Assembly (NCBI GenBank): GCA_030425195.1
Contig: JAUIAV010000025.1
Span: 2,877 to 66,876, forward strand
From: Gammaproteobacteria bacterium
GTDB lineage: Bacteria > Pseudomonadota > Gammaproteobacteria > Pseudomonadales > Azotimanducaceae
Length of the DNA stretch: 64,000 nt
Reading direction: 5' to 3'
The translations under genes were made by a program, and so were the position numbers. This document shows, one piece after another, positions 5,246 through 36,567 of the stretch. Within the stretch, counting starts at the first letter, position 1; every line of letters begins with the position of its first letter. Under the pieces are notes generated by a model. It was not told the DNA's origin. It ran no database searches and saw only the letters and a program-made list of their open reading frames with translations.

Positions 5246-6336
5246 TGAGCTTCCCCGAGAGATTTCAGTTTGTCGGCCTGATCTTCCTGGATCAGCGGCT
5301 GCACCACGTGATCGAGGTCGCCTTCGATCACCTCGTCGAGCTTGTAGAGTGTGAGGTTGATGCGGTGATCCGTCACCCGGCTCTGGGGGAAGTTGTAGGT
5401 TCGGATGCGCTCCGATCGGTCGCCGGAGCCGACCAGTGACTTCCGGGTCTCGGCCTGCTCGGCCTGCTGCTCGGACTGGGCCATGTCCAGCAGTTTGGCC
5501 TGAAGGAGCGACAGCGCCCGTGCCCGGTTCTTGTGCTGGGAACGTTCGTCCTGACACTCCACCACGATGCCGGTGGGCAGGTGCGTGAGGCGGATGGCGG
5601 AGTCCGTCTTGTTCACGTGCTGACCGCCGGCGCCGGATGCCCGGAAGGTATCTTCTCTCAGATCCTTCTTGTCGATTTCGATTGAATTGATTTCGTCCAC
5701 CTCCGGCATCACGGCCACCGTGCAGGCGCTCGTGTGGATGCGGCCCTGGGACTCCGTTTCCGGTACCCGCTGGACCCGATGGGCCCCGGACTCGAATTTC
5801 AGCTGGGAGTACACGTCCTGTCCGGAGATCCTGGAGATGATTTCCTTGAAGCCACCGTGCTCGCCGGGTTTTTCGTTCAGCACCTCCAGCTGCCAGCCTT
5901 TCCGCTCCGCGAACTTCGAGTACATGCGGAACAGGTCGCCGGAGAAGATGGCGGCCTCGTCGCCGCCGGTACCGGCACGGATTTCCAGAAAAACGTTGGC
6001 ACCGTCGTTGGGGTCCCGGGGCAGCAGGAGTTTCTTGAGCGCCGTTTCCGTGTCCTCGAGTTCCGAATCGAGCCGCTGTGCGTCTTCTTCGGCGAGCGCG
6101 CGCATGTCCGGGTCCTCGTCTTCGGCCAGCGCCTTCGCGTCCTCGAGCTCGCCGGTCAGTGACTCGTAGCGCCTGAAGCAGGCGATCACCGGCTCGATTT
6201 CAGCGAACTCCTTGGACAGCGCGGTGAACTGATCACGATTGCCCATCACCTCCGGGTCCGCGAGGAGGGCGGCGACCTCGTCATAACGGTCGGTCAGACC
6301 CGACAGCTTGGCCGTCATGGAATCCGATAGGCTCAT
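5242..6336 (-). CDS. prfA: Peptide chain release factor 1
   Basis: [11 protein letters not shown] (GGQ) motif, RF1-type sequence, and the hemA-prfA-prmC order. Confidence 0.97.
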
Positions 6337-6342
6337 GAAACG

Positions 6343-7596
6343 TCAGTCCAGGTGATACAGGGTTTTCAGGTACTCGAGCAGATCGGCACGCCCGTCGGCT
6401 GCCGCGTTGCGGATGGCCGTGGTGGGCGGATGGATGAGCTTGTTGGTGAGACCGCGGCTGAAGCGTTCCAGGATCGCCTGCGGTTCACCGCCGCGACCGA
6501 GTTCCTTCAGCGCCTTCTCCAGCTCGGCCTGCTGGATGCGTTCGGCGTTGTCCCGGAACTGGCGCAGCATGGCCTGTCCATGATGGGCGCGGCGTTCCCG
6601 GAGGTAGTGATCTGCGCCGTCGGTAACCATGGATTCCGCATTCTCGGCTGCCTCGCGCCGGGACCGGACGTTTTCCTCGATGATCTGCGTCAGATCGTCG
6701 ATGGTGTACAGATAAACGTCCGGCAGCTCGGCGGCTTCAGGTTCCACGTCCCTGGGAACGGCGATGTCGACCACGAATATGGGCTTATGGCGGCGCTGCT
6801 TGATCGCTGCCTCCAGAGCGCCCTTGCCGACCACGGGCAGCGAGCTGCCCGTGGACGCGATCACGATGTCGTATTCGTGCAGGTGGGCGGCCACGTCCGT
6901 GAGCTGCATGGGCACCGCGTCGAATCTTGCCGCCAGGCTCTCCGCGTTGGTGAGGGTCCGGTTGGCGATGGCCATCCCGGCCACGCCGAACTCCGCCAGG
7001 TGCTCGGCCACCCGCTGAATCGTATCGCCGGCGCCGAGCAGCAGGGCGCGTGTGTCTTTCAGGTCGGTGAAAATCTGCTGCGCCAGGCTGACGGCGGCGT
7101 AGGCCACCGAAACCGGATTCCGGCCGATGTCCGTGTCCGTGCGCACCCGCTTGGCGGCAGACAGGGTGATCTGGGACAGCAGTGAAAGCTCCGGACCCAC
7201 CGTACCGGCAGTCCGGGCCAGATCGTAGGCGGACTTCACCTGGCCCATGATCTGGGGTTCACCGAGCACCTGTGAGTCCAGGCCGGAAGCGACCCGGATC
7301 AGATGACGGGCCGCGTCCTGGTCCCAGTGACTGTAGGCAACGGCTTCGATTTCCGCGGGTGCGATCGCCCGCTCATCCGCCAGCCACTCCACCACGTTCC
7401 GCTCCCGGTTCGGATCCATGGAGAGGTAGAGCTCGGTTCTGTTGCAGGTGGAGATGATGGCGGCCTCCGAGACGCTGGGAATGCTGCGCGTGGCGGCCAG
7501 CAAAGCGTCTCCCAGGGTTTCCTCGGGAAAAGCGATCCGCTCCCGGAATTCCACGGGTGCCGTGCGGTAGCTGACGCCGTATGCCAATATCGCCAT
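6343..7596 (-). CDS. hemA: Glutamyl-tRNA reductase
   Basis: N-terminus MAILAYGVSYRTAPVEFRE, active-site STCNRTE, and an NADPH-binding GAGDT region. Confidence 0.95.
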   Translation of the reverse strand: MAILAYGVSYRTAPVEFRERIAFPEETLGDALLAATRSIPSVSEAAIISTCNRTELYLSMDPNRERNVVEWLADERAIAPAEIEAVAYSHWDQDAARHLIRVASGLDSQVLGEPQIMGQVKSAYDLARTAGTVGPELSLLSQITLSAAKRVRTDTDIGRNPVSVAYAAVSLAQQIFTDLKDTRALLLGAGDTIQRVAEHLAEFGVAGMAIANRTLTNAESLAARFDAVPMQLTDVAAHLHEYDIVIASTGSSLPVVGKGALEAAIKQRRHKPIFVVDIAVPRDVEPEAAELPDVYLYTIDDLTQIIEENVRSRREAAENAESMVTDGADHYLRERRAHHGQAMLRQFRDNAERIQQAELEKALKELGRGGEPQAILERFSRGLTNKLIHPPTTAIRNAAADGRADLLEYLKTLYHLD

Positions 7597-7717
7597 TTCC
7601 AGAACTTCGAAAAACCTGAATGCACGCTCCGCTGAGCGGCTCTGCTCGGAACGCGCATTCTATCGCAAGTGACGATCCGGCGGACTTGTATAACTTACTA
7701 TTTTTAAAGGTGTTTCC

Positions 7718-8308
7718 GTGAAGGTGATTCCCCGGTTGGCCTGTTGGCGGCGGCTGACCGGGGCGATGCTGATCGCGGCGCCGCTCCTGATCGCCGGCTG
7801 CGCGGGACTGCCCGGCATGCCGGAGTCGCCGGAGACCTTCGTGCTCACGGGCAAGGTCGGGGTCCGGGAAGCCCGGGAAAGCTTCAGCGCCAATCTGCTC
7901 TGGCATCAGAAAGGGGAGGCCTTCGACATCGACCTGTGGGGTCCGCTGGGCCAGGGTCGGGTGAAACTCGTTAAAAAAGGTGACGGAATAGAGCTGCGCT
8001 CGGACCAGGGGGTACTCGCGGCCGGCGAGGCGGATGCCGTCATGCGCGAGCATCTCGGCTGGAGCCTGCCCGTGGACGTGCTGCCCGCCTGGGTGCAGGG
8101 AACGCCCTATGCGGGAGAGCCGGCCGAGGCGGTGGTCCGGGATGCCGATGGCCGCCTCACAGGCTTCTCGCAGCTTGGCTGGGCGGTGGTGCTCGAGCGA
8201 TACCAGGCCATTCAGGATGGGGCTTCTGCCCGGGATCTGCCCACCCGGATCACGGCCACCCGGGAAGGTGCCAGGGTTCGCCTGGTGGTTTCCGAATGGC
8301 GGCTCTGA
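7718..8308 (+). CDS. lolB: Outer-membrane lipoprotein insertion protein LolB
   Basis: GTG start and lipobox LIAGC. About 190 aa, divergent from hemA as in E. coli and Pseudomonas, with the F.A.L.W...G.F.IDL.GPLGQ pattern. Confidence 0.8.
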   Translation: MKVIPRLACWRRLTGAMLIAAPLLIAGCAGLPGMPESPETFVLTGKVGVREARESFSANLLWHQKGEAFDIDLWGPLGQGRVKLVKKGDGIELRSDQGVLAAGEADAVMREHLGWSLPVDVLPAWVQGTPYAGEPAEAVVRDADGRLTGFSQLGWAVVLERYQAIQDGASARDLPTRITATREGARVRLVVSEWRL

Positions 8309-13374: not shown

Positions 13375-13451
13375 GGCTACGTAGCTCAGCTGGTTAGAGC
13401 ACAGCATTCATAATGCTGGGGTCGTTGGTTCAAGTCCAACCGTAGCTACCA
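13375..13451 (+). tRNA. tRNA-Met (anticodon CAU, elongator type)
   Basis: 77 nt. GGCTACGTAGCTCAGCTGGTTAGAGCAC..., anticodon arm CAGCA-TTCATAA-TGCTG, CCA end. Closely resembles E. coli metT. A lysidine-modified tRNA-Ile2 cannot be fully excluded. Confidence 0.9.
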
Positions 13452-13465
13452 TATTCCGGTGATGA

Positions 13466-13487
13466 GGGCCTCACGGACGCGAGGCCC
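13466..13487. terminator. Hairpin between the convergent tRNA-Met and the small-protein operon
   Basis: GGGCCTC-acggacgc-GAGGCCC, a 7-bp perfect stem. There is no clear U-tract on either strand. Confidence 0.35.
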
Positions 13488-13496
13488 ATCGACAGA

Positions 13497-13817
13497 TCAG
13501 CTGAACAGCTTGCCTGCCAGAGCACCCAATCCACCAGGCGTGAATTCGGCGACCTTCGGACCGATGACCTTGAGCACCTGTTCGATGACCTCCGGGGTCA
13601 GCCCCAGCTGTCCGGCCAGTGCGCCTACATCGACTTTCGACAGAAACCCGTCGAGATCGAGCCCTCCGAGCAGATCGGTGAGGTCGAAGCCGTCGCCGCC
13701 GCCGAGCTGCGCTCCGAGCATCGCACCCAGATCCGGAATCTTGTCTTCCGGCACCCCGGCCGCCTGAATCGAGTCGATCAGTCCTGGCGCGTTCTTGAGC
13801 AGATCCATTACATCCAT
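13497..13817 (-). CDS. Hypothetical small G/L/D-rich protein
   Basis: 106 aa with a strong GGGAGG RBS 8 nt upstream. It starts 14 nt after the yegP stop, so it is probably co-transcribed. No family confidently recognised. Confidence 0.6.
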   Translation of the reverse strand: MDVMDLLKNAPGLIDSIQAAGVPEDKIPDLGAMLGAQLGGGDGFDLTDLLGGLDLDGFLSKVDVGALAGQLGLTPEVIEQVLKVIGPKVAEFTPGGLGALAGKLFS

Positions 13818-13831
13818 GGCGTTTGCCTCCC

Positions 13832-14164
13832 TCAGGTCTGATCGTCCGTTGCGGCATCTGCCGCATTCTCGGCGACCGACTTCATGCCGTTTTCACAGGC
13901 ATCCTTCGAGCTGTACATGCCGCTCTGACCGATCACCTGATGATTGGCGGCCTTCAGTACGAAGTACGGGCTGCCGTTCTTGGCCTCCTTCACCTCGTAT
14001 CGTGCGGGGTCACCCGCGTTCTTCTTCACGCTCTCGATGCCGTTCAGCACACCGTCCCTGGCCTTATAGCCTTCACCGGTCAGAATCGTTTCCCCATTTC
14101 CCGCTTTGAGGCGAAACCGGAATTCACCGGCATTGTCTTTGTAGATTTCGAATTTACCTGCCAT
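13832..14164 (-). CDS. yegP: YegP family protein (tandem DUF1508)
   Basis: MAGKFEIYKDNAGEFRFRLKAGNGE...FVLKAANHQVIGQSGMY gives two DUF1508 repeats. AAGGAGGA RBS. The track ORF (to 14380) is trimmed to the ATG at 14164. Confidence 0.85.
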   Translation of the reverse strand: MAGKFEIYKDNAGEFRFRLKAGNGETILTGEGYKARDGVLNGIESVKKNAGDPARYEVKEAKNGSPYFVLKAANHQVIGQSGMYSSKDACENGMKSVAENAADAATDDQT

Positions 14165-14419
14165 TTTTATCCTCCTTGGTTGGCGACTCCATCTCAACAG
14201 GCTTGGCAGCAGAGAGCAATCCGTATTGCTCCGGATAGCTGCGATCTGCTCTATTCTTAAGGCGGTAACGCCGAAGGCTCGGCATATTGAACACTGTGCG
14301 GCCCGCGGTCCCATAGCCACCCGGAGTGAAATCCACCCCTGTTGCCTAAGGACATCTGCGGATATCCGTGCTTCTGTCAAAGGTGTCTAGTGACCAGTTC
14401 AACGGACTCGGAGGGAAAC

Positions 14420-14965
14420 GTGATCAGATTTGTATCGGTGCCGGTCATCCTGCTGATCTCAGGTGTTGGCATCAGTTTGAACGCGCAGAGCGCATCTCTG
14501 GCTTCAACCATGGACGTGTACGTGTTTCCGGCCAAAGGCCAGGAATCGTCACAACAATCTCAGGATGAAGCGGCGTGCTACGACTGGGCGGTGGACAACG
14601 CCGGTGTGGATCCTTTCGATCTCTCGAAGCAATCCGAAGCGGACCAGCAGCAGGCCCAGGCGGAACAGGAAGCGGCGAAAGGTGCCGGTCGCGGCTCAGG
14701 TGCTCGCGGTGCGCTCGGCGGCGCGGCCGCTGGCGCTCTGATCGGCGAGATCGCCGATGATGACGCAGGCGAAGGCGCTGCCTGGGGTGCTGCGGTCGGT
14801 GCCATCCACGGTCGCCGGCAGGGACGACGGGCCGAGGCCCAGGCTCAGCAGCAGGCGACTGCTCAGGCTTCCCAGCGTGAACAGGTGACGGCGGAACAGC
14901 TTTCGAACTTCAAGAAAGCCTTCTCGGTGTGCCTCGAAGCCAAAGACTACATGGTGAAATACTGA
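14420..14965 (+). CDS. Secreted glycine-zipper / Q,A-rich protein, hypothetical
   Basis: GTG start with a GGAGGG RBS and a signal peptide (VPVILLISGVGISLNAQS). Contains the glycine-zipper stretch GALGGAAAGALIG...GAAWGAAVGAIHG. Confidence 0.55.
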   Translation: MIRFVSVPVILLISGVGISLNAQSASLASTMDVYVFPAKGQESSQQSQDEAACYDWAVDNAGVDPFDLSKQSEADQQQAQAEQEAAKGAGRGSGARGALGGAAAGALIGEIADDDAGEGAAWGAAVGAIHGRRQGRRAEAQAQQQATAQASQREQVTAEQLSNFKKAFSVCLEAKDYMVKY

Positions 14966-15393
14966 TGAACAGAGATAACCGCGTGTTCGGAAGATTCTGG
15001 ACGATCACGGCGCTCCTGATCGCAACAGGTATGGCTTCAGCGGAGGATCTTACGGGCGTTGACGAATTCATCTGTGCCGCCGGCCAGGCTCAGATCTGTG
15101 TGGAAGCAGATACCTGCTATGCCACCACTGCCTGGGAACTCTCCATGCCGGAATTCGTCGTGATCGATACCGGAAAACGCACCGTGTCGACAACGCGCGC
15201 CAGTGGGCTGAACCGATCCAGCAGCTTCAGCTCCCGCGAACGGACGGACGATCTGATCTTTCTCCAGGGTATGGAGAACGGGAGAGCGTTCAGCTTCGTG
15301 ATCCACGAGGCAACTGGCCGGCTGACGGCCACCATCGCCCGGGACGGTGCGGTGGTAACCGTGTTCGGTTCCTGTACTGATACCAAGCTCTGA
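14965..15393 (+). CDS. Secreted hypothetical protein
   Basis: The ATG overlaps the previous stop (TGATG). Signal peptide FWTITALLIATGMASA and four Cys. No family recognised. Confidence 0.55.
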   Translation: MNRDNRVFGRFWTITALLIATGMASAEDLTGVDEFICAAGQAQICVEADTCYATTAWELSMPEFVVIDTGKRTVSTTRASGLNRSSSFSSRERTDDLIFLQGMENGRAFSFVIHEATGRLTATIARDGAVVTVFGSCTDTKL

Positions 15394-15421
15394 TCGGACA
15401 CCGGCTCCGATCAGGCATCAC

Positions 15422-27153: not shown

Positions 27154-27852
27154 ATGGCTGATCGTCCTGCGGTAGAGCAAGTTCAGGAGCGAATTCATCC
27201 GGCGCCGTCCGCTGCCCGACCGGGCGCGGGTGGTGCCGTCGAAATCAACAGAGTGCTGCGCAACACGTATCTGCTGCTCGGCATGACGCTCGCTTTCAGC
27301 GCAGCCATGGCCGCGTTCGCCATGGCCATCAATGCGCCCTATCTGGGTCTGTGGACGCTGCTCGGCTGGGCCGGCCTGCTGTTCCTGGTCTACAAGACGG
27401 CCAACAGTGCCTGGGGCATCGCTTCCGTGTTCGCGTTCACCGGCTTCCTCGGGTTCACCATCGGCCCGGTGATCAGCATGTTCATGGCCCTGCCGAACGG
27501 TGCCGGGATCGTGACCATGGCGCTCGGCAGCACGGCGGCCGCTTTCGTCGGTCTGTCCGCTGTGGCGCTGGTGACCAAGAAAGACTTCAGTTTCATGTCG
27601 AGCTTCCTCACGGTGGGCGTGCTGCTGGTGTTTGCGGTGGTGATGCTGAGCTGGTTCATGGATCTCAGCGCCTTCTACGGCGCCATCGGCGGTGCCGTGG
27701 TTCTGCTCATGAGCGGCATGATTCTCTGGCAGACCAGCGAGATCATCCACGGCGGTGAGACCAACTACATTCTGGCCACCACCTCTCTCTACATGTCGCT
27801 CTGGAACATGTTCCAGTGGCTGCTCATCCTGTTCGGCATGGGCGACGACTGA
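27154..27852 (+). CDS. yccA: Bax inhibitor-1 / YccA family membrane protein (FtsH modulator family)
   Basis: NRVLRNTYLLLGMTLAFSA followed by seven TM segments. C-terminal LYMSLWNMFQWLL typical of the BI-1 family. Confidence 0.85.
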   Translation: MADRPAVEQVQERIHPAPSAARPGAGGAVEINRVLRNTYLLLGMTLAFSAAMAAFAMAINAPYLGLWTLLGWAGLLFLVYKTANSAWGIASVFAFTGFLGFTIGPVISMFMALPNGAGIVTMALGSTAAAFVGLSAVALVTKKDFSFMSSFLTVGVLLVFAVVMLSWFMDLSAFYGAIGGAVVLLMSGMILWQTSEIIHGGETNYILATTSLYMSLWNMFQWLLILFGMGDD

Positions 27853-27878: not shown

Positions 27879-27907
27879 AAGCCCGCCTCCTGCGGGCTTT
27901 TTATTAT
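27879..27907 (+). terminator. Rho-independent terminator after yccA
   Basis: AAGCCCGC-ctcct-GCGGGCTT stem followed by TTTATTAT. The stop codon of the convergent cbbO/norD-like gene lies inside the T-tract. Confidence 0.75.
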
Positions 27908-29907
27908 CGCCCGCTCAACGTCTGATAGACCGCGGAGAGCTTCTCGGGCAGGTCTTCGATCTCGTCGATGATCAGGTAGCGATGCGGTGGACACATGCGT
28001 TTGAGATAGTCGTTTCCGGACTTGTCCACCGTCACGCAGAAGACCTCGACCCCTTTGCTCTGAGCCTCCGTCAGCGCCCTGGCCGTGTCCTGCAGGCCGT
28101 ATTCGTGATCGCCCCGTTCCGGACCGTAATCTGAATCCTGGGGAAAGCCGTCGGACAGGATGATGAGAATCTTCATGGCATTGCCGCTGCTCACCAGCTT
28201 GGTTGCCGCGTGCCGTATGGCCGGACCCATGCGGGTGCTGCGACGTGGTTTCATGCTGGCGATGGCATCCAGTGTCCGCTGCGTAAACGGCTCGTTCGGT
28301 TCCTTGGCCACGTAGAACTCCACACAATCGCGCCCGTATCCCGAGAAACCGTAGATGCCGTAGCTGTCGCCGAGCCGCTCCAGGGCCGCGGACATCACCA
28401 GCATGGACTCCCGCTGCACGTCGATGATCCGCCGGCGGTCTTCCGGAGATGCCAGATCGAGGCTGAAGTCATCGTCGTAGGGGTCCCGGAGGTTGACGTC
28501 CATGCCGTCCGGCATAGGCGGAGGCGGTTCGGGCGGCTCTATGGGGTCGTCCGTCGAGGCGGACAGGTCCACCAGAAACGCGGCGCAGACGTCCCGGTGC
28601 ACGCGGTCCTTACGGGAATAGACCCGTTCGTCCGGACTGATACCGGCCCGCACGTCCTGGCGGGCATCCATCAGCGCGTTGAAGTCCAGCTCATCGCCGT
28701 CGGCCACCCGCTTCACCCGCTGATAGCCGAGCGGCTTGATCTGTTCGAGCTGATGCATCACCGACGCCGCATGCTGCTGGATGACGCGTTTCAGCTCCGC
28801 GGGATCCGATTTGCCGTCGCTCTCGAGCCGCTCTTCAAACAGACGGCACCAGTGCCGGAGATAGCGGCGCTCGAGGTAGTTCCATTCGTCGTAGCGGTAG
28901 CTCCGGGTACCCGGCGTGACGGTGCCGAGGGCATCCCTGACACTGGAACGCTCCATGTCCAGCCTGCGTTTCAGGTTGTCCCGTTCGTCTGACAGCGCCC
29001 GTATGGCCACGTTCTCGTCTCTGAGCGTCGCATTTTCCAGTGACTCTGCAGAGGCGGCGTCCACCTCGGATTCCTCCAGCAGCTCCAGGAAGAGCGTCTG
29101 GTCGATCTGATCCAGGGATTCCTCCCAGTCCTCCATGCGCGCTTCACGCTGCATCCACTCGAGGGCATCGTCTTCGGCGGCGACGGCCAGCTCGGCCATC
29201 TGCTCCGGAAAGGCGTCCGGTGGCGGCAGAAGGGGCAGGCAGCCCAGATAGAGTTCGAGCGCCAGTTCTGCCGCGTCGTAGACGTCCGCCCGGTCGGTGT
29301 CGAGGTGCTCGAGCGCATCCAGGGCGTCGGCTGCCAGGCCGGTCCCGTCGTCCACGGAGTCTCTGGGAGCGCCTTTCGCCACTGCCTCGATGGCATCGAT
29401 GAGATCCCAGACGTCGTCGACCTGCACGGTGCCGGAGAACCGGTACGTCCGGTAACGGTCGAGATGCCGGGCGAGACCCGGGTAGCGGCCGAGCAGCCGG
29501 TACGTGATCCGGGCTTCCTCGCAGGCGAGAAACAGACGTTTCAGGAGTCCGGGGTGCGGCACACGGCTGAAGAAGGCCGTGAAGTCGCTGGCTCTGAGCC
29601 GGACATCGGGTGTGGGCAGCTTCGACAGCGCTGGAATCCGCCCGCGGGCTTCCTCAAAGTCGAACCGGTAGGTACCGAACTCCTTCTGTCCGAGCTGCAG
29701 CATCACCAGGACCCGGTAGGCGGCCGGATCCGGGTAGTCCAGTTCGTCCGGTACGTAGACCGTGTCCACGGCCATGGCGGTCTGATCGTCTTCGAGACTG
29801 AACTGCCGCTGACCGAACTCGCTGACCGGTTTGATGTGGTAGTAGTGGCCGGCAATGCCCTCGGCGAAGAGGGTCAGCGCGGCCTCGACGTCGACGAGCG
29901 CTACCAC
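27904..29907 (-). CDS. CbbO/NorD-family VWA-domain adaptor protein
   Basis: 667 aa with a long helical N-region and a C-terminal VWA domain carrying MIDAS DxSxS (FLVDLSASTDD). Starts 10 nt downstream of the CbbQ/NorQ ATPase gene. GTG start. Confidence 0.85.
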   Translation of the reverse strand: MVALVDVEAALTLFAEGIAGHYYHIKPVSEFGQRQFSLEDDQTAMAVDTVYVPDELDYPDPAAYRVLVMLQLGQKEFGTYRFDFEEARGRIPALSKLPTPDVRLRASDFTAFFSRVPHPGLLKRLFLACEEARITYRLLGRYPGLARHLDRYRTYRFSGTVQVDDVWDLIDAIEAVAKGAPRDSVDDGTGLAADALDALEHLDTDRADVYDAAELALELYLGCLPLLPPPDAFPEQMAELAVAAEDDALEWMQREARMEDWEESLDQIDQTLFLELLEESEVDAASAESLENATLRDENVAIRALSDERDNLKRRLDMERSSVRDALGTVTPGTRSYRYDEWNYLERRYLRHWCRLFEERLESDGKSDPAELKRVIQQHAASVMHQLEQIKPLGYQRVKRVADGDELDFNALMDARQDVRAGISPDERVYSRKDRVHRDVCAAFLVDLSASTDDPIEPPEPPPPMPDGMDVNLRDPYDDDFSLDLASPEDRRRIIDVQRESMLVMSAALERLGDSYGIYGFSGYGRDCVEFYVAKEPNEPFTQRTLDAIASMKPRRSTRMGPAIRHAATKLVSSGNAMKILIILSDGFPQDSDYGPERGDHEYGLQDTARALTEAQSKGVEVFCVTVDKSGNDYLKRMCPPHRYLIIDEIEDLPEKLSAVYQTLSGR

Positions 29908-29917
29908 CGTGCCGGTC

Positions 29918-30772
29918 TCAGGGCAGGATGACGTCGACGATGTCGGCGATGGCCTGCTGCACGGCCTCGTCGTCGGAGACCGCGCTGATGATGCCGATTT
30001 CCGCGGCGCGGCGGGGCTCGATACCCTGCTGCATCAGGCTGCCGGCGTAGATCAGCAGGCGTGTGCTCACCCCTTCCTCGAAGCCGTGCTCGCGCAGATT
30101 CCGCACCTTGGCTCCGATCAGGGCCAGGCGCTCTGCGACCGGTCGCTCGACGCCGGATTCGTGCGCGATGATGGTCGCCTCCCGCCCCTCGTCCGGATAG
30201 TCGAACGTGAGGCTGACGAACCGCTGCCGCGTGCTCGGTTTCAGATCCTTGAGCACACTCTGGTAGCCGGGGTTGTAGGAAATCACGAGCAGGAAGTCCG
30301 GATGGGCGGCGAGGAGCTCACCGGTCTTGTCGATGGGCAGCAGGCGACGGTGGTCGGTCAGCGCATGGATGAGCACCGTGGTGTCCTTGCGTGCCTCGAC
30401 GATCTCGTCCAGGTAGCAGATGGCACCGTTGCGCACGGACTGGGTAAGTGGTCCATCCCGCCACACGGTATCGTCGCCCTGAAGCAGAAAACGGCCCACC
30501 ATGTCGGTGGCCGTGAGGTCTTCGTGGCAGGCGATGGTCATCAGCGGTACGTCGAGATCGCTCGCGCGCTGATCGCGATACAGGCGCCAGGCCATGTGTT
30601 CCACGAAACGGGTCTTGCCGCAGCCCGTTGGACCCTTCAGCAGCACGGGCAGCCGGGCATGGTAGGCGGCTTCGAACAGCGTCACCTCGTCGGCCAGGGC
30701 CAGGTAGTAGGGCTCTTCGCGCAGCTCGACCGGGTCTGCCCGGTGGCCGGATTCGTTCAATGCTGTGCTCAT
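29918..30772 (-). CDS. CbbQ/NirQ/NorQ-family MoxR AAA+ ATPase
   Basis: Walker [11 protein letters not shown] and Walker [11 protein letters not shown]. About 284 aa with typical CbbQ sequence (EEPYYL...VTLFEAAY). Confidence 0.92.
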
Positions 30773-31665
30773 GCGGGGGTGTAGATCTCGCTGCCTTTTC
30801 GATAGGTGAAGAAGTTTACGGCCGGGTTCCGGTTCACCAGGTTGCGACGGTACATGGGATGCGCGAGCGAACGGACCTCGTGCTCGATTTCCGCCAGGGT
30901 CTGACCGCTGTCAGGATCGACGATGCTCTGAAACCGGTACTGATGCGCGTCCGATTCCTCGCTGATCAGGGATCGCTCGTTCAGCCAGGCGTGTGGCCCG
31001 GAGAAATTGCTCACGTAGACGGCGATGTGGTGGCCGTCGTAGTCGGCGATGGGTTCATCCGTCTCCGCGAAGCGCATTTCCTGATTGCTGCTCATCTTCA
31101 CCCGGGCGACGCCGGCCGATGCGGTAGCCGGGCAGCCGATCACTTCGCGATAGAAGCGGGCGATGCCTTCGCTGGTATCCGGAGCCACCTGCATCTCCAC
31201 GTACGGCATCCCCAGGTCCATCAGAGGAAACACGCCGGGCGGATAGGCGCGGATCCGGTTACCCCAGGGGCAGGTGAGGGCGATATGGTCCGCCTGCTCT
31301 TCCCAGCCGAACGCCGTATCCGGCATCTGTCTGGCGATGAAGCCGAGTCGTTTCTTCAGCTCCTCGAGATCGGGCACCACCACGGCGATGTGCCCGCGGA
31401 ACACCTGGGCGTCCGCCTTCGGGAGATGAAACTGCTGTTCGCCCAGGTTCACCCACATGTTCAGAGTCCCGAAATCGATGTACGGGTCACGGGTGAAGCC
31501 GAGGCCGGTCACGTAGAACAGCGCTGCGATGCCCTGGTCCGGCACGGTCAGATTCACGTGCTCGAGCATGATGATGTTGCCCACGTCTTCCGTGGCCCGG
31601 TCGAACTCCGGTGCGGCTGCGCCGGTCTGCTCTGCCTTTTCTGTTTTTTGTGCCTGTTCTGCCAC
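30769..31665 (-). CDS. Two-module VOC (glyoxalase/extradiol dioxygenase-like) fold protein, function unknown
   Basis: Two beta-alpha-beta-beta-beta-like modules: [24 protein letters not shown]... and [23 protein letters not shown]...HHIAVYV. The stop overlaps the cbbQ-like start (ATGA at 30769-30772). Confidence 0.55.
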
Positions 31666-31777
31666 GTCCTGCCCCCTGTCCGCGTGCGCTCAACGACTTT
31701 AACCGCGCGGGCGGTGAGATGCGAGAAGGGCCAGCGACCCTGCGCTATAGTGAGCGTCGGTCACTTGTGGATGCGCT

Positions 31778-32887
31778 GTGATGACGGACGGCACTGATGC
31801 ACAATCCGATACGGATACCCTGCTGGATGCCACCACGGCGCTGATCCCGCCACTGCTGACGGCGCTGGATGCACTGGCGTATGCAGGGCGCCACCTGCAT
31901 CCGCCCGCGCTGGCCGAGCTGGTGCCGGGTGTGGCCAGGTTCCGGGAACCTCTGGCAGAAGGGCTGACGGCGTTCCAGGCCATCGACTGGCCCGAGCATC
32001 TGACCCGTTTCGCGGAGCATTCGGCGCGGGCGGGCGAAGAGGCGCTCAAGGCTTATGACGGCCTGGCGAACTGCCTGACCCAGAGTAATCCGGTCATGGG
32101 CGCTTACCGGGCCATGAGCTTCAGTACCCGGGCCGTGGAGGCTCTGTATCCCGTCTCATCCATGCTGCCGCCGGTGAGCCGTTTCTACCTTTCCGAAAAC
32201 CATCGCGGCGACGAGTCGCTGCAGGCTCGGCTTGCGGCGTCGGACGCGGGCCGGGACGGGGTGGGTGTGATGCACGCCGCCAATGAGGTCACGGAGCGGG
32301 GTGGATTTTCGCTCTATGTACCGGAGTACTACGATGGCGGCGAGGCCATGCCGCTCGTCGTGGCGTTACATGGGGGCAGCGGTCACGGGCGGAGCTTCCT
32401 CTGGAGCTGGCTGAGGGATGCCCGCAGCCGCGGGGTGATTCTGGCAAGCGCCACTTCCCGGGAAGGCACCTGGTCGCTGATGGGGCCGGATGTGGACAGC
32501 GCGGGTCTGGATGCCATCGTCCACCGGGTATCCGAACACTGGCGTGTGGATGAAGCGCGGGTGCTGCTGACCGGCATGTCCGACGGCGGCACCTTCTCCT
32601 ACCTCAGCGGTCTGCGCCCGGATGCCCCCTTTACCCACCTTGCACCCATTGCGGCAAGCTTCCACCCCATGCTGATCGAAGTTGCGGAAGCCGGGCGTCT
32701 CCAGGGACTGCCCGTCTACCTGACGCACGGCGCCCTGGACTGGATGTTCGACGTGGAGGTGGCGCGGGTCGCTCGGGAATCGCTGACCCGTGCGGGTGTG
32801 GATCTCACCTATCGGGAGATCGAGGACCTGTCTCACACCTACCCGCGCGAGGAAAACGACCGGATTCTCGACTGGCTGCTCGCCTGA
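31778..32887 (+). CDS. Alpha/beta-hydrolase (phospholipase/carboxylesterase-type) with an unknown ~170-aa N-terminal domain
   Basis: PLVVALHGGSGHG, nucleophile elbow GMSDGG, and a late HG..D.M region. The N-terminal half is unrecognised. The ATG at 31781 is an alternative start. Confidence 0.7.
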   Translation: MMTDGTDAQSDTDTLLDATTALIPPLLTALDALAYAGRHLHPPALAELVPGVARFREPLAEGLTAFQAIDWPEHLTRFAEHSARAGEEALKAYDGLANCLTQSNPVMGAYRAMSFSTRAVEALYPVSSMLPPVSRFYLSENHRGDESLQARLAASDAGRDGVGVMHAANEVTERGGFSLYVPEYYDGGEAMPLVVALHGGSGHGRSFLWSWLRDARSRGVILASATSREGTWSLMGPDVDSAGLDAIVHRVSEHWRVDEARVLLTGMSDGGTFSYLSGLRPDAPFTHLAPIAASFHPMLIEVAEAGRLQGLPVYLTHGALDWMFDVEVARVARESLTRAGVDLTYREIEDLSHTYPREENDRILDWLLA

Positions 32888-33262: not shown

Positions 33263-34267
33263 TCAGCCGGTTGCCGGTTGCCCTTCGGTGCCCTGCCAGA
33301 GTTCTTCCTGGCCGGACCCTGCGGAACGTCCGAACCAGCTCATGGCCTCCTGCACACGCTCCTGCACCGACATGAAGGGCGAATCGAGCGCTTCAACCTG
33401 GCGCAGTCGCGGCAGCAGGCCTTCATTGTTGGCGATCTGAATGGACAGCCCCGGCCGGGCGTTGAGCTCGAGCAGCAGCGGTCCCTGGTGTCGATCGATG
33501 ACGATGTCGCAGCCCAGATAGCCGAGACGGGTGGCTTCGTAGGAGCTGGCTGCCAGCCGCAGCAGCGAGGACCAGTTCGGTACCTGGATCCGGCTGAGAT
33601 CGGCGTTCGTGTCCGGGTGCTGCCGGACCAGCCGGTTGTGCTGCACGGCGGCGATCGCCTGCCCGGTGCCGATGTCCAGGCCGACGCCCACCGCTCCCTG
33701 GTGCAGGTTCGCTTTTCCATCCGACTCGCGGGTCGCCAGCCGCAGCATGCCCATGACGGGAAAACCCTGAAAGACGATCAGCCGGATGTCCGGTACCCCT
33801 TCGAAGCTCACGGCTTCGAAGGCATCCGTGGTTTCCACCAGGGATTCGATGATGGCGACATCCGGGCGGCCGCCGAGGGAATGCAGGCCGCTGATGGTGT
33901 TCGTGAGGTGCCGCTTGATTCCGGCGATGTCGACGATGCCACCGCTCGATTTCACATAGCCTTCCGGCCTGCGGCCGCGTATCACCAGAATGCCCTTGCC
34001 GCCGCTGCCCTGCGCAGGCTTGATGACGAAGCTGTTGAGGTGCTCGAGCAGCTCCGCGATGTCCTCGATCTCGTGCTGAGTGGAGATGGTATGCAGCAGC
34101 TCCGGAACTCTCAGACCCACCTTGCGGGCCATGAGCTTGGTCTTCAGCTTGTTGTCCACCAGCGGGTAGTTCGAGCGGTCGTTATAGCGGCTGATGTAGG
34201 CGACATTCCGCCGGTTCATGCCGAGCACACCGATCCGTCGAAGGCGCCAGGGGGATATCCAGTTCAT
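33263..34267 (-). CDS. Alpha-L-glutamate ligase-like (RimK-related ATP-grasp) protein
   Basis: GVLGMNRRNVAYI..., FVIKPAQGSGGKGILV, and DIRLIVF...LNARPGL ATP-grasp motifs. The ATG overlaps the upstream stop (ATGA 34264-34267). The track ORF (604 aa) is a read-through. Confidence 0.85.
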   Translation of the reverse strand: MNWISPWRLRRIGVLGMNRRNVAYISRYNDRSNYPLVDNKLKTKLMARKVGLRVPELLHTISTQHEIEDIAELLEHLNSFVIKPAQGSGGKGILVIRGRRPEGYVKSSGGIVDIAGIKRHLTNTISGLHSLGGRPDVAIIESLVETTDAFEAVSFEGVPDIRLIVFQGFPVMGMLRLATRESDGKANLHQGAVGVGLDIGTGQAIAAVQHNRLVRQHPDTNADLSRIQVPNWSSLLRLAASSYEATRLGYLGCDIVIDRHQGPLLLELNARPGLSIQIANNEGLLPRLRQVEALDSPFMSVQERVQEAMSWFGRSAGSGQEELWQGTEGQPATG

Positions 34268-35763
34268 CGGGGTTCGAAGCTCGCGAACCGGCGCAGCTCC
34301 AGCAACCGGTAGCCGGTGTAGCGGCCGATCACCATCACCAGCGCCAGGATGGCCAGGTGCAGCTCCGGAAAATTGAATGCCAGGTGCCGGACGAGCCCCA
34401 CGTCCATCAGCAGGAAGGCGAGGGTGGCCACCAGCAGGCTGCCTCCACCCTGAAGCAGGACTTCCTTCGGTCCTTCCTCCTCCCAGATGATGGACATCCG
34501 CTCGATGGTCCAGGCGAGGATGATCATGGGGAAGAAAGTGATGGTCAGGCCGCCGATGAGTCCGAGCTGGTAACTGACCACGCTGAACACCGAGATGATG
34601 CCGATCACCAGGATCACCAGCGTCGCGATCCGCGCCACCAGAAGCAGGTTCAGGCTGGAAAGGTACGAGCGGATCAGAAGACCGAAGGCCACCACCAGAA
34701 TGAAGCTGGCGAGCCCGGGCAGCAGATCCGTCTGGAGAAATGCCAGGGCGATGAGCACCGGCATGAAGGTGCCCGACGTGCGCACGCCCACCAGAATCCG
34801 CATGAAGACGACCACGAGCGCGCCAACGGGAAGCAGCATGATCAGCTTGAACATGCCCTGCTCGGCGATGGGGAGACTGTACAGAGAGAGCGCGAATCCG
34901 GGTTCCCGGGATTCCTCTGCCAGCTCCAGCATGGATCGGTCCTGACTGATCATCGAGAAGGTCACCCGGGAGCTGGTGCCGCCGATGACTTCGAATACGG
35001 CCGGTGTCTCGGTCTGCCAGAGCAGCAGTTTCTCCGAATCCGGGACGGGCCCGGTGGTGGGATGGTAGAGACGCCACCGGTCCCCCTGCCAGACCTGCAC
35101 GTGCTCCATCAGCGCCTGCCGGCGTCGACCATCCTCCAGCAGAAGCACCTGCACGGACCTGGCCGGAATGCCTGCGGTTGTCAGAAGCCTGGCCAGGAGC
35201 TCCGGATCGTCATAGCGGTCCTTGAGCAGGCTCATGTTCTGATCGGCCGGTGTGCTGGTCATCAGATTGACGAGCTGTACCGCCATGGAGTGTGCGTCGG
35301 CGGTGATCGGCAGCAGGGAATCGATCACCTGCCGGGCGGCAGTCAGGTACGGCTCGTCCCAGCGGGGCGGGATCAGAGCACCGGGCGGAATGGGTTCGAC
35401 GATCTGTGCCGGGTCTTCGACGACGGGCAGGCTGTAGAAAAGGGCCTGCTGACCTTCCGCGTGGCGTTTGGTCCAGTGAGCGCGCCGCTGCTCGGCGTTC
35501 CTGTCCACGTCGAATCCGAAGCCGGGCGCCGCACCGGTGCCTTCCAGGAGCCGGAAGCCGGTCTGCTCCGGCGGCAGGGTCAGAAAGATCTGCGTGGGGC
35601 CTCCGAGGGCCGTGTACTCAATCCGGGCCTCCACCTGCCAGACCGTCTGCTGCTCACCCGGCAGCAGCGGGATACGGTATTCCTGGTGGCGGAACCCGGC
35701 CGTGCCGACGCCCGCCGCGAAGAGCAGGAGCACGAGAAATAGGAACGGGCCTCGGTTTGTCAC
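34264..35763 (-). CDS. Transglutaminase-like periplasmic domain fused to a 7-TM domain (UUP1 / inactive transglutaminase family)
   Basis: An N-terminal TM, a soluble domain of about 280 aa, then about 7 hydrophobic helices (FKLIMLLPVG...). Sits between the protease and the ATP-grasp gene as in the known cassette. GTG start. Confidence 0.75.
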   Translation of the reverse strand: MTNRGPFLFLVLLLFAAGVGTAGFRHQEYRIPLLPGEQQTVWQVEARIEYTALGGPTQIFLTLPPEQTGFRLLEGTGAAPGFGFDVDRNAEQRRAHWTKRHAEGQQALFYSLPVVEDPAQIVEPIPPGALIPPRWDEPYLTAARQVIDSLLPITADAHSMAVQLVNLMTSTPADQNMSLLKDRYDDPELLARLLTTAGIPARSVQVLLLEDGRRRQALMEHVQVWQGDRWRLYHPTTGPVPDSEKLLLWQTETPAVFEVIGGTSSRVTFSMISQDRSMLELAEESREPGFALSLYSLPIAEQGMFKLIMLLPVGALVVVFMRILVGVRTSGTFMPVLIALAFLQTDLLPGLASFILVVAFGLLIRSYLSSLNLLLVARIATLVILVIGIISVFSVVSYQLGLIGGLTITFFPMIILAWTIERMSIIWEEEGPKEVLLQGGGSLLVATLAFLLMDVGLVRHLAFNFPELHLAILALVMVIGRYTGYRLLELRRFASFEPR

Positions 35764-35775
35764 GTATCGGGGGCG

Positions 35776-36567
35776 CTACGGCCCTTCAGGCGGTGAGTAA
35801 CGAGGCTGAATGAATTGTTTGCCGACGTCAACGAGGGTGACATCCGCCAGGAAGTTGCGGCCGAGAATCAGCTCGTTCTCCAGGTGTGACCGGTCGGCCA
35901 GCGTGAACTCGAAGGTGTCCTGTATCTCGCCGATCCGCACCCGCATTTCCACCACCGGGCGCCGGGAACCGCTGGGATCCGCCTGCTGAACGACCCGCAC
36001 GTGACGAAGAATCCGCTCCTCGACGGTGACGGAATCCTTTTCGTTGATCATCATGTCGAAGCGTACCCAGTCTTCACCGTCGCGTTCGAAGGGCACCAGA
36101 TTTTCCGCATGCAGCGAGCTGGAGGTGGCCCCCGTATCGATGCGGGCGACCACGGTCACACCGGGCGGCTCTATGTAGACGTACTCGAGTTCACCGACGA
36201 GCATCTTGTCGGCGCTCACGATCACACGGGCCACTTCCTCGCATTGAGCGACCGCCTCAGGCTCCGGGCAGCTGAGCTGCAGACTGTCCGGGAGCGTGCG
36301 GATCTGTTCGTCCAGATCGGCCAGTCGGGCATCGAGTGCTGCCCTGCCGGTCAGGTCACTGCTCTGGATCGCCGTCAGCGCCGCCTCGGAGCGGGACAGC
36401 TGTGTCGACAGTCCATCGATCTGGGCCGAAACATCGTCCAGCGTGGTCTGATCGGGGTCGAACTCCGTCTGCAGACAGCCGCCCAGGGCAATGCCCGCGA
36501 GGAGAATCGCGCAGAGTCTGACTAGCTTCGGCCTGTTGTCCGGCCGTATTCCCGGTGCAGTGTCCAT
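35776..36567 (-). CDS. Retropepsin-like 'ATP-dependent zinc protease' family (DUF785/RimB-like) lipoprotein with a coiled-coil N-region
   Basis: Lipobox ALGGC. C-terminal domain VARIDTGATSSSLHA...W.RF with a DTGA aspartic-protease signature, plus LILGRNFL. Confidence 0.8.
   Translation of the reverse strand: MDTAPGIRPDNRPKLVRLCAILLAGIALGGCLQTEFDPDQTTLDDVSAQIDGLSTQLSRSEAALTAIQSSDLTGRAALDARLADLDEQIRTLPDSLQLSCPEPEAVAQCEEVARVIVSADKMLVGELEYVYIEPPGVTVVARIDTGATSSSLHAENLVPFERDGEDWVRFDMMINEKDSVTVEERILRHVRVVQQADPSGSRRPVVEMRVRIGEIQDTFEFTLADRSHLENELILGRNFLADVTLVDVGKQFIQPRYSPPEGP

Follow-up and report, generated by a model that had tools for sequence, protein, structure and literature searches.

A conserved operon encoding a VOC-fold protein, a CbbQ/NorQ-type ATPase and a NorD/CbbO-type VWA protein in a gammaproteobacterial lineage

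Layout and boundaries of the operon

We analyzed a 64,000-nucleotide stretch of DNA from a Gammaproteobacteria bacterium of the Azotimanducaceae (GenBank assembly GCA_030425195.1, contig JAUIAV010000025.1, positions 2,877 to 66,876; hereafter the window), focusing on three adjacent genes that encode a VOC-like protein, a CbbQ/NorQ-type ATPase (hereafter Q), and a NorD/CbbO-type protein with a VWA domain (hereafter O):

30769–31665, minus strand: VOC-like gene, first of the operon; 298 aa, GTG start
29918–30772, minus strand: CbbQ/NorQ-type ATPase gene (Q), second; 284 aa, ATG start
27904–29907, minus strand: NorD/CbbO-type VWA gene (O), third; 667 aa, GTG start

A first-pass annotation of this DNA had described the three genes as a compact, co-directional unit, and the open reading frames (ORFs) and their junctions bear this out. 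The stop of the VOC gene and the start of Q share an ATGA (30772–30769), and a 10-nt gap separates the stop of Q (29918) from the start of O (29907), both as first annotated. G+C content is about 64% across the window, and codon-position G+C, used to tell real genes from spurious ORFs, gave all three genes the signature of real ones (0.80–0.84 at third codon positions). The two GTG starts are backed by the N-termini of homologues, which begin MAE... in the VOC alignment and MV..ALVDVE in the O alignment. The unit is bounded by these features:

31666–31777: intergenic region between the divergent VOC and esterase genes; 112 nt
31778–32887, plus strand: esterase gene of the PHB-depolymerase/LC-Est1 type, divergent neighbor; N-terminal extension of about 175 aa
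27878–27900: GC-rich, terminator-like hairpin; 9 pairs, 6 of them G-C
27154–27852, plus strand: Bax1-I/YccA-like gene, convergent neighbor of O; downstream boundary

The intergenic region upstream is presumably the site of the operon promoter; an AGGA lies 5 nt upstream of the VOC GTG start, and no sigma-70 consensus was found within the 112 nt. Downstream, the hairpin marks the end of the operon in the 51-nt gap that separates the stops of the convergent O and Bax1-I/YccA-like genes, with a T-run 3' of the stem on the plus strand only. The operon region holds four terminator-like matches against 1.7 expected by chance; inside genes, on the coding strand, there are two, both short (5–6 pairs). 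The esterase matched the sequence of 3wyd, LC-Est1C, at 2.2e-18 and NCBIfam NF050058 at 1.7e-13, the latter below the family cut-off. Because the divergent gene bounds them upstream and the hairpin and convergent gene downstream, the three genes stand as a self-contained operon, VOC-Q-O, that is real and isolated from its neighbors.

The three encoded proteins

Q matched the Pfam families AAA_5 (1.3e-30) and CbbQ_C (1.3e-27) and retains intact Walker A (GPTGCGKT, residues 46–53) and Walker B (ICYLDE, residues 118–123) motifs, so that its original description as a CbbQ/NorQ-type MoxR ATPase stands. Among sequences in the PDB its closest relatives were CsoCbbQ (5c3c, 1.7e-103), the CbbQ protein AfCbbQ2 (6l1q, 1.2e-97), and NorQ (9qh4, 2.5e-93), and its matches to CbbQ/NorQ structures, two of NorQ included, ran over residues ~10–281 with E-values of 1e-103 to 1e-90. 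Judged by sequence, Q is unambiguously a CbbQ/NorQ ATPase (CGN-subfamily MoxR AAA+), and a gene for a VWA partner lies directly 3' of it in the window and in all loci where the VOC gene and Q are linked. An insertion of 9 aa follows 'WRLY' (residues ~65–73), is 6–12 aa long throughout the clade, and was not found in the solved CbbQ and NorQ proteins. In Paracoccus NorQ, two cysteines form an inhibitory, regulatory disulfide at the P-loop (PMC13036017); both are kept in Q, which by analogy hints at the same redox gating as proposed for NorQ.

O had been annotated as a CbbO/NorD-type protein with a C-terminal VWA domain bearing a metal ion-dependent adhesion site (MIDAS), a description that its sequence bears out for the C-terminal half. 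It matched the Pfam VWA family at 1.4e-7, and its similarity to NorD was limited to residues 324/336–666 (336–664 with the family profile, at 6.6e-38), a region that takes in a conserved GDELD segment, the MIDAS motif, and the C-terminus. The MIDAS motif DLSAST (residues 447–452) aligned to DVSRST of NorD, and the MIDAS residues D447, S449, S451, T558, and D586 are invariant in the O family alignment. The protein is laid out as a helical N-terminal domain (~1–240), an acidic helical linker (~245–330), a pre-VWA segment (336–455), and the VWA domain. An AlphaFold2 (AF2) model of moderate confidence (mean predicted local distance difference test, pLDDT, 68.5) had the NorD VWA domain as its best Foldseek match (E 2.8e-17; template modeling score, TM, 0.72, target-normalized), followed by the MIDAS domain of midasin.

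Residues 1 to ~335 of O had no sequence match in the PDB by phmmer or with the family profile, and tblastn against 257 plasmid-borne NorD/CbbO-type genes likewise found no match to the N-terminal half, with only residues ~306–666 aligning. The matched NorD chains in the PDB comprise 217–286 residues, against 638–646 aa for the sequences, and evidently lack the N-terminal domain, so the comparison with NorD is one of sequences. The N-terminal domain and linker of NorD are proposed to grip the client (PMC13036017), and for this reason a different client predicts an O protein with a subfamily-specific N-terminal half. At the level of sequence, the N-terminal half of O appears unique to its subfamily and fits a different client, while the segment of NorD that engages the ATPase is conserved.

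The 298-aa protein was the only one of the three whose expected family, Glyoxalase (PF00903), stayed below threshold (16.6 bits; cut-off 20.6) in profile searches that returned AAA_5 and CbbQ_C for Q and VWA for O. Sequence searches found no NCBIfam family and no PDB relative for it, and sequence alone does not establish the VOC assignment. An AF2 model built from a 40-sequence alignment, at a pLDDT of 94.8, has two domains with four beta-alpha-beta-beta-beta modules. Foldseek returned 285 PDB matches to this model at E ≤ 0.001, and all 50 matches listed belong to the VOC superfamily, the best being 1zsw, PcpA (4huz), 3oaj, GLOD4, and maize glyoxalase I (E 3e-11 to 3e-8). The predicted structure thus establishes the VOC fold that the first-pass annotation had proposed, in four modules and two domains instead of the two modules it had counted, and with conserved residues at what would be the canonical metal-ligand positions.

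Those residues, H36, H80, H213, and E263, are invariant or nearly so in alignments across the VOC family, as are Q78, N38, H262, R265, and H269. The four are predicted to lie on the strands that bear the metal ligands in the VOC fold, and in a weak profile match (E 0.0024) H36 and H213 fall on the first ('xHV') and third ('HHI') ligand motifs of methylmalonyl-CoA epimerase. The putative metal site would be formed by H36, H80 (Q78), H213, and E263, and is likely to be a mononuclear site shared by the first and last modules.

The invariant set of His, Arg, Asn, and Gln residues is unusually rich and would suit an anionic ligand together with a metal. This would agree with a quite different role for the protein, as an active third component in a trio of the chelatase kind (compare CobN with CobS/CobT and BchH with BchI/BchD), in which it binds a small-molecule substrate or metal and the ATP spent by the Q/O pair drives a reaction or a delivery to some other target. 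The layout of AAA+ protein, VWA protein, and third protein also resembles that of class I chelatases (CobSTN; bioRxiv 10.64898/2026.07.21.739949). We nonetheless consider such a trio quite improbable: the VOC protein resembles neither CobN nor BchH, Q is closest to CbbQ/NorQ, whose partners remodel proteins, and most lineages have VOC homologues that share its conserved residues and work on their own, which argues that ATP coupling is not intrinsic to the VOC chemistry.

Conservation of the operon and candidate clients

Q/O and Q/D pairs and their relatives CoxD/E, BchI/D, and CobS/T are remodeling or metal-insertion chaperones that are normally encoded beside their client. In the norCBQDEF operon, for example, the Q/D pair adjoins its client (PMC9976466). 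The first-pass annotation had stated that no cbbL/cbbS, norCB, or nir genes occur in the 64 kb, and for Rubisco, NorB, NirS, and NirK this agrees with our Pfam scan, which found none of these domains in 33 window ORFs; the scan included every likely ORF of at least 300 aa and did not exhaustively cover small genes such as cbbS and norC. Neither the scanned ORFs nor the tabulated genes of nine relatives' loci included any nor, cbb, or cox gene, and the remaining genes of the window are housekeeping and catabolic. A reading of the unit as an anti-phage MoxR/VWA defense system was rejected, since the one PADLOC match among Q, O, the VOC protein, and the esterase was a generic AAA match for Q (9e-6, RtcR-like).

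The VOC protein belongs to a large family, with at least 7,997 matching database clusters; the 50%-identity representatives gave 1,384 matches at E ≤ 1e-3, of which 194 reached E ≤ 1e-30. We collected 115 loci, each searched with the window proteins; metagenomes were scanned for VOC homologues with an 11-sequence alignment as the query. The nearest genomes are metagenome-assembled genomes (MAGs) labeled Candidatus Azotimanducaceae, Pseudomonadales, or Gammaproteobacteria. A literature search on the family name Azotimanducaceae yielded nothing on physiology. Among 38 non-redundant loci whose VOC protein was at least 57.5% identical to that of the window, Q lay directly downstream in 36, with O next wherever the contig continued; the exceptions were L012 (68%) and L041 (60%). 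Below 57.5% identity, Q was adjacent in just one of 74 loci, 46 of which had at least 1 kb of downstream sequence, and this locus (L114, VOC protein 57% identical) had been found via O. All seven loci found from O alone carried a 282–288-aa VOC gene followed directly by Q and O, with O proteins ~51–65% identical to that of the window over the C-terminal half and, where listed, 50–55% over the whole length.

Of 14 called junctions in the relatives, 13 lie between −8 and +40 nt, and the other is a Q-O gap of 266 nt (L113). Contiguity of the trio holds down to identities of ~57% for the VOC protein, 72% for Q, 46–54% for the C-terminal half of O, and 36–41% for its N-terminal segment. Gene order decays around the trio and not within it: the outer flanks differ (SSF transporter and aldehyde dehydrogenase, methylamine dehydrogenase, P450, or aldo-keto reductase), and the convergent Bax1-I gene, nearly always nearby, is at times separated from O by one to three genes. 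No plasmid copies of the VOC gene were found. One contig binned as Verrucomicrobiota (L023, JBNMMV010000005.1, labeled Limisphaerales) carries the full block from ABM to Bax1-I at 54–76% identity, which looks like a binning error rather than a transfer.

The linked VOC proteins are monophyletic in a neighbor-joining tree, which is consistent with the linkage having arisen once. The expectation that VOC homologues would be syntenic with Q/O pairs across taxa therefore holds inside one clade, and the evidence from recurrence is weaker than 'across taxa' would imply because of that single origin. The conservation pattern fits an operon under selection across several family-level lineages, and it also fits a single ancestral juxtaposition in a syntenic region. 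In the latter case, the Q/O pair would serve, in trans, a client whose gene lies elsewhere, for example a cytochrome c-dependent NO reductase (cNOR), a different haem-copper oxidase, Rubisco, or an enzyme of the CO-dehydrogenase type, having landed once beside a housekeeping VOC gene in the ancestor of the clade and been inherited vertically since. Besides the single origin, an in-trans client is favored by the synteny of the whole neighborhood (esterase, ABM, GST, and Bax1-I), by VOC homologues elsewhere that need no Q/O, by the naming of O homologues as 'NorD' in some sources, and by orphan CbbQ genes, with or without VWA partners, in unrelated contexts (L100 and the Miltoncostaea plasmid, below). 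Against it, the trio is contiguous in all seven O-seeded loci, often with overlapping stops and starts, while other neighbors have been inserted or lost; the N-terminal half of O is unrelated to NorD and to the plasmid NorD/CbbO-type sequences; the gene tables of the nine relatives' loci hold no nor or cbb gene; and known Q/D and Q/O pairs normally sit beside their client. We regard an in-trans client as unlikely, though deserving of serious weight, and we favor the operon reading because gene order decays only outside the trio and because O has a private N-terminal half.

The same data bear on whether the divergent esterase, instead of the VOC protein, is the client of the pair. Among the 32 linked loci whose upstream sequence is long enough, 29 have the esterase along with Q/O; unlinked VOC loci lack it, and its distances co-vary with those of O. 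Yet L113 and L114 keep VOC-Q-O without it, the gene is on the opposite strand, and extra genes often lie between it and the operon. The esterase is a conserved neighbor and probably not an obligatory part of the system, and its being the client is very improbable.

Several observations weigh against the VOC protein as the client. The linkage arose once, and its conservation could be inheritance; Bax1-I, and in most cases the esterase, have been kept as well. Outside the clade, where VOC homologues evidently need no Q/O, most of the family lacks the pair, and linked and unlinked VOC proteins do not differ at any putative active-site residue. No VOC residue tracks the presence of Q/O in an alignment of linked and unlinked proteins. 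Asp at residue 150, present in 92% of linked and ~2% of unlinked proteins, was considered as a MIDAS docking residue and rejected, since deep-branching linked members have H, S, A, T, or Y at this position and the Q/O-less L012 keeps Asp; D150 is a sub-clade marker. L012 itself, which also favors a client in trans, has an in-clade VOC gene (5911–6849 of the locus) with all sub-clade marker residues and, for 6 kb to either side, none of the genes for Q, O, the esterase, or Bax1-I; the VOC gene may have moved, may be one of two copies, or may have lost its chaperone genes recently. Co-variation of the VOC distance matrix with that of O is no stronger than with that of the esterase (mirror-tree correlations of 0.82–0.85 for VOC-O and 0.85 for VOC-esterase, with partial correlations controlling for Bax1-I likewise equal), and we rejected it as evidence on the client because it does not discriminate O from the esterase.

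The absence of Q/O from most VOC homologues does not refute a role for the pair, given the precedent of the NO reductases: cNOR of Paracoccus needs NorQD, whereas the quinol-dependent enzyme (qNOR) matures without it and the Thermus cNOR gene cluster has no norQD (PMC9976466, PMC12067857). The proposal of the first-pass annotation that the VOC protein is the client is thus strengthened by a real operon, intact Q and O motifs, a predicted VOC fold, and contiguity within the clade, and weakened by the single origin, the Q/O-less homologues, and the lack of a tracking residue. Judged from operon structure, there is about an even chance that the Q/O pair is dedicated to the VOC protein, and the conserved operon suggests, without proving, that this chaperone family has a client of a new kind. 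A little short of even, and held tentatively, is the more specific proposal that Q/O is a dedicated ATP-driven maturase or reactivase of the metal center of a soluble VOC-fold enzyme, with the N-terminal domain of O as the client-recognition module; in this proposal the contact between the proteins, the choice of metal, and whether the pair inserts the metal or reactivates the enzyme are all inferred.

How such a machine might work can be sketched by analogy with NorQD. In a cryo-electron microscopy model, NorD docks by a finger inserted into the NorQ pore and by contacts of its C-terminus with NorQ (PMC13036017). Q would similarly assemble as an ATP-driven hexamer, on which O would dock via its NorD-like pre-VWA segment and its VWA domain and C-terminus. 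O could then grip the VOC protein at two points, the lineage-specific N-terminal domain and linker and the MIDAS site, and ATP hydrolysis, or ATP-driven rotation, would stretch the acidic linker and open the VOC cup. A divalent metal, most likely Fe2+ or Mn2+ for this fold, would then be loaded into the His/His/His/Glu site; alternatively, an oxidized metal or tight inhibitor would be released and the dead site reset.

Other CbbQ-family and VOC genes turned up in unrelated settings. In L100, a stand-alone CbbQ-family gene with no VWA partner (6826–7722, minus strand; product 64% identical to Q, with a short clade insertion) lies between cysS, for cysteinyl-tRNA synthetase, and a beta-eliminating-lyase/threonine-aldolase-type gene. 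Its proximity to a 53%-identical, unlinked VOC homologue 3.4 kb away on the opposite strand was set aside as probably a coincidence. In an apparently marine sub-clade (L042, L044, L046, L047, and L051–L053), a fixed cluster of four or five genes always lies upstream of a Q/O-less VOC gene; judged by eye, its products include a membrane protein resembling MotA/ExbB and a pair of coiled-coil proteins that carry the MIDAS-like motif 'LLDSSASM', and a small methyltransferase-like gene lies 3' of the VOC gene. The contexts of unlinked homologues are heterogeneous and this marine cluster is unrelated, and we dropped the attempt to read a function from them as nothing could be inferred.

On a plasmid of Miltoncostaea oceani (L116, NZ_CP064358.1, 4190–7900), a gene for a CbbQ-family ATPase is followed by genes for a 362-aa protein with no Pfam match and a 548-aa VWA protein, the latter being the best plasmid match to the C-terminal half of O (34.8%). 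Acetolactate synthase, thiolase, and acetoacetate-decarboxylase genes are near this cluster, with no Rubisco or NO reductase genes nearby, an orphan arrangement that suggests more unassigned clients for the CbbQ/NorQ chaperone family.

Two further regions of the window stood out. Just upstream of the operon neighborhood is a three-gene cluster (33263–36567, minus strand) that is kept in many relatives and corresponds to a recognized, poorly understood module of the peptide-modification type:

35776–36567, minus strand: RimB-like Zn protease
34264–35763, minus strand: inactive transglutaminase fused to seven transmembrane helices
about 33263–34267, minus strand: ATP-grasp protein of the RimK/ATPgrasp_ST type

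Farther away, a tRNA-Met gene (13375–13451) is followed by ~2 kb of lower G+C (0.60) holding only small ORFs, one of which (13832–14380, minus strand) by eye has a tandem YegP/DUF1508-type look; the region from 13375 to 15420 may be the remnant of an integration site.

Comparison with known systems

CbbQ/NorQ-type ATPases and their VWA partners have two well-studied clients, Rubisco, from which inhibitors are released, and cNOR, into which iron is inserted. The families of Q and O are already known; what is new is the putative class of client, along with the domain at the N-terminus of O. We found no paper linking NorQ/NorD or CbbQ/O with a glyoxalase or VOC protein. If the VOC protein is the client, it would represent the first class of soluble clients besides Rubisco for the CbbQ/NorQ-NorD/CbbO family and a third, experimentally tractable client, a soluble protein of ~30 kDa as opposed to a membrane oxidase or the 550-kDa Rubisco. 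It would also give a first functional handle on a large unnamed VOC family of thousands of sequences that lacks relatives in Pfam, NCBIfam, and the PDB, and, like cNOR and qNOR, offer orthologues with and without the chaperone in which to ask why some metal sites need an AAA+ machine. Many 'orphan' Q/O pairs are merely mislabeled NorQ/NorD in annotations, and if the linkage proves to be merely historical, 'NorD/NorQ' labels in Pseudomonadales MAGs would still be no evidence of denitrification.

NorQ/NorD inserts the non-haem FeB iron into cNOR. Q is about equally similar to NorQ and CbbQ (NorQ at 2.5e-93) and keeps the disulfide cysteines, and O has the length and layout of NorD, with residues 336–664 aligning to its pre-VWA segment, MIDAS, and C-terminus. 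The present system differs in having no norC/norB among the scanned ORFs near the operon, in the 6–12-aa clade-specific insertion of Q, in an N-terminal half of O without detectable homology to NorD, and in its putative client, a soluble VOC protein instead of a membrane haem-copper oxidase. With CbbQ/CbbO it shares the best PDB matches of Q (CsoCbbQ and AfCbbQ2), the gene order of Q then O, and a MIDAS-bearing VWA partner, but there were no cbbL/cbbS/cbbM or carboxysome genes in the scanned window ORFs. The 667-aa O matched plasmid NorD/CbbO-type genes over its C-terminal half only, and no solved CbbO chain matched it in PDB sequence searches.

On the client side, the closest comparison is with two-domain VOC metalloenzymes, namely hydroquinone dioxygenases of the PcpA/LinE type, 1zsw, 3oaj, GLOD4, and monomeric glyoxalase I. 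These have the same four-module fold as the model of the 298-aa protein, whose conserved His/His/Glu-type residues lie on the first and last modules, where PcpA also places its iron ligands, although identities are just 10–13% at TM-scores of ~0.5. We know of no AAA+/VWA partner for any of these relatives. The XylT-type ferredoxins, which reactivate extradiol dioxygenases of the VOC superfamily, offer an analogy, being dedicated helpers that are encoded beside a VOC enzyme and restore its active Fe(II) center; XylT works by electron transfer, as opposed to ATP-driven remodeling, and is unrelated to Q and O, so that the analogy is one of function.

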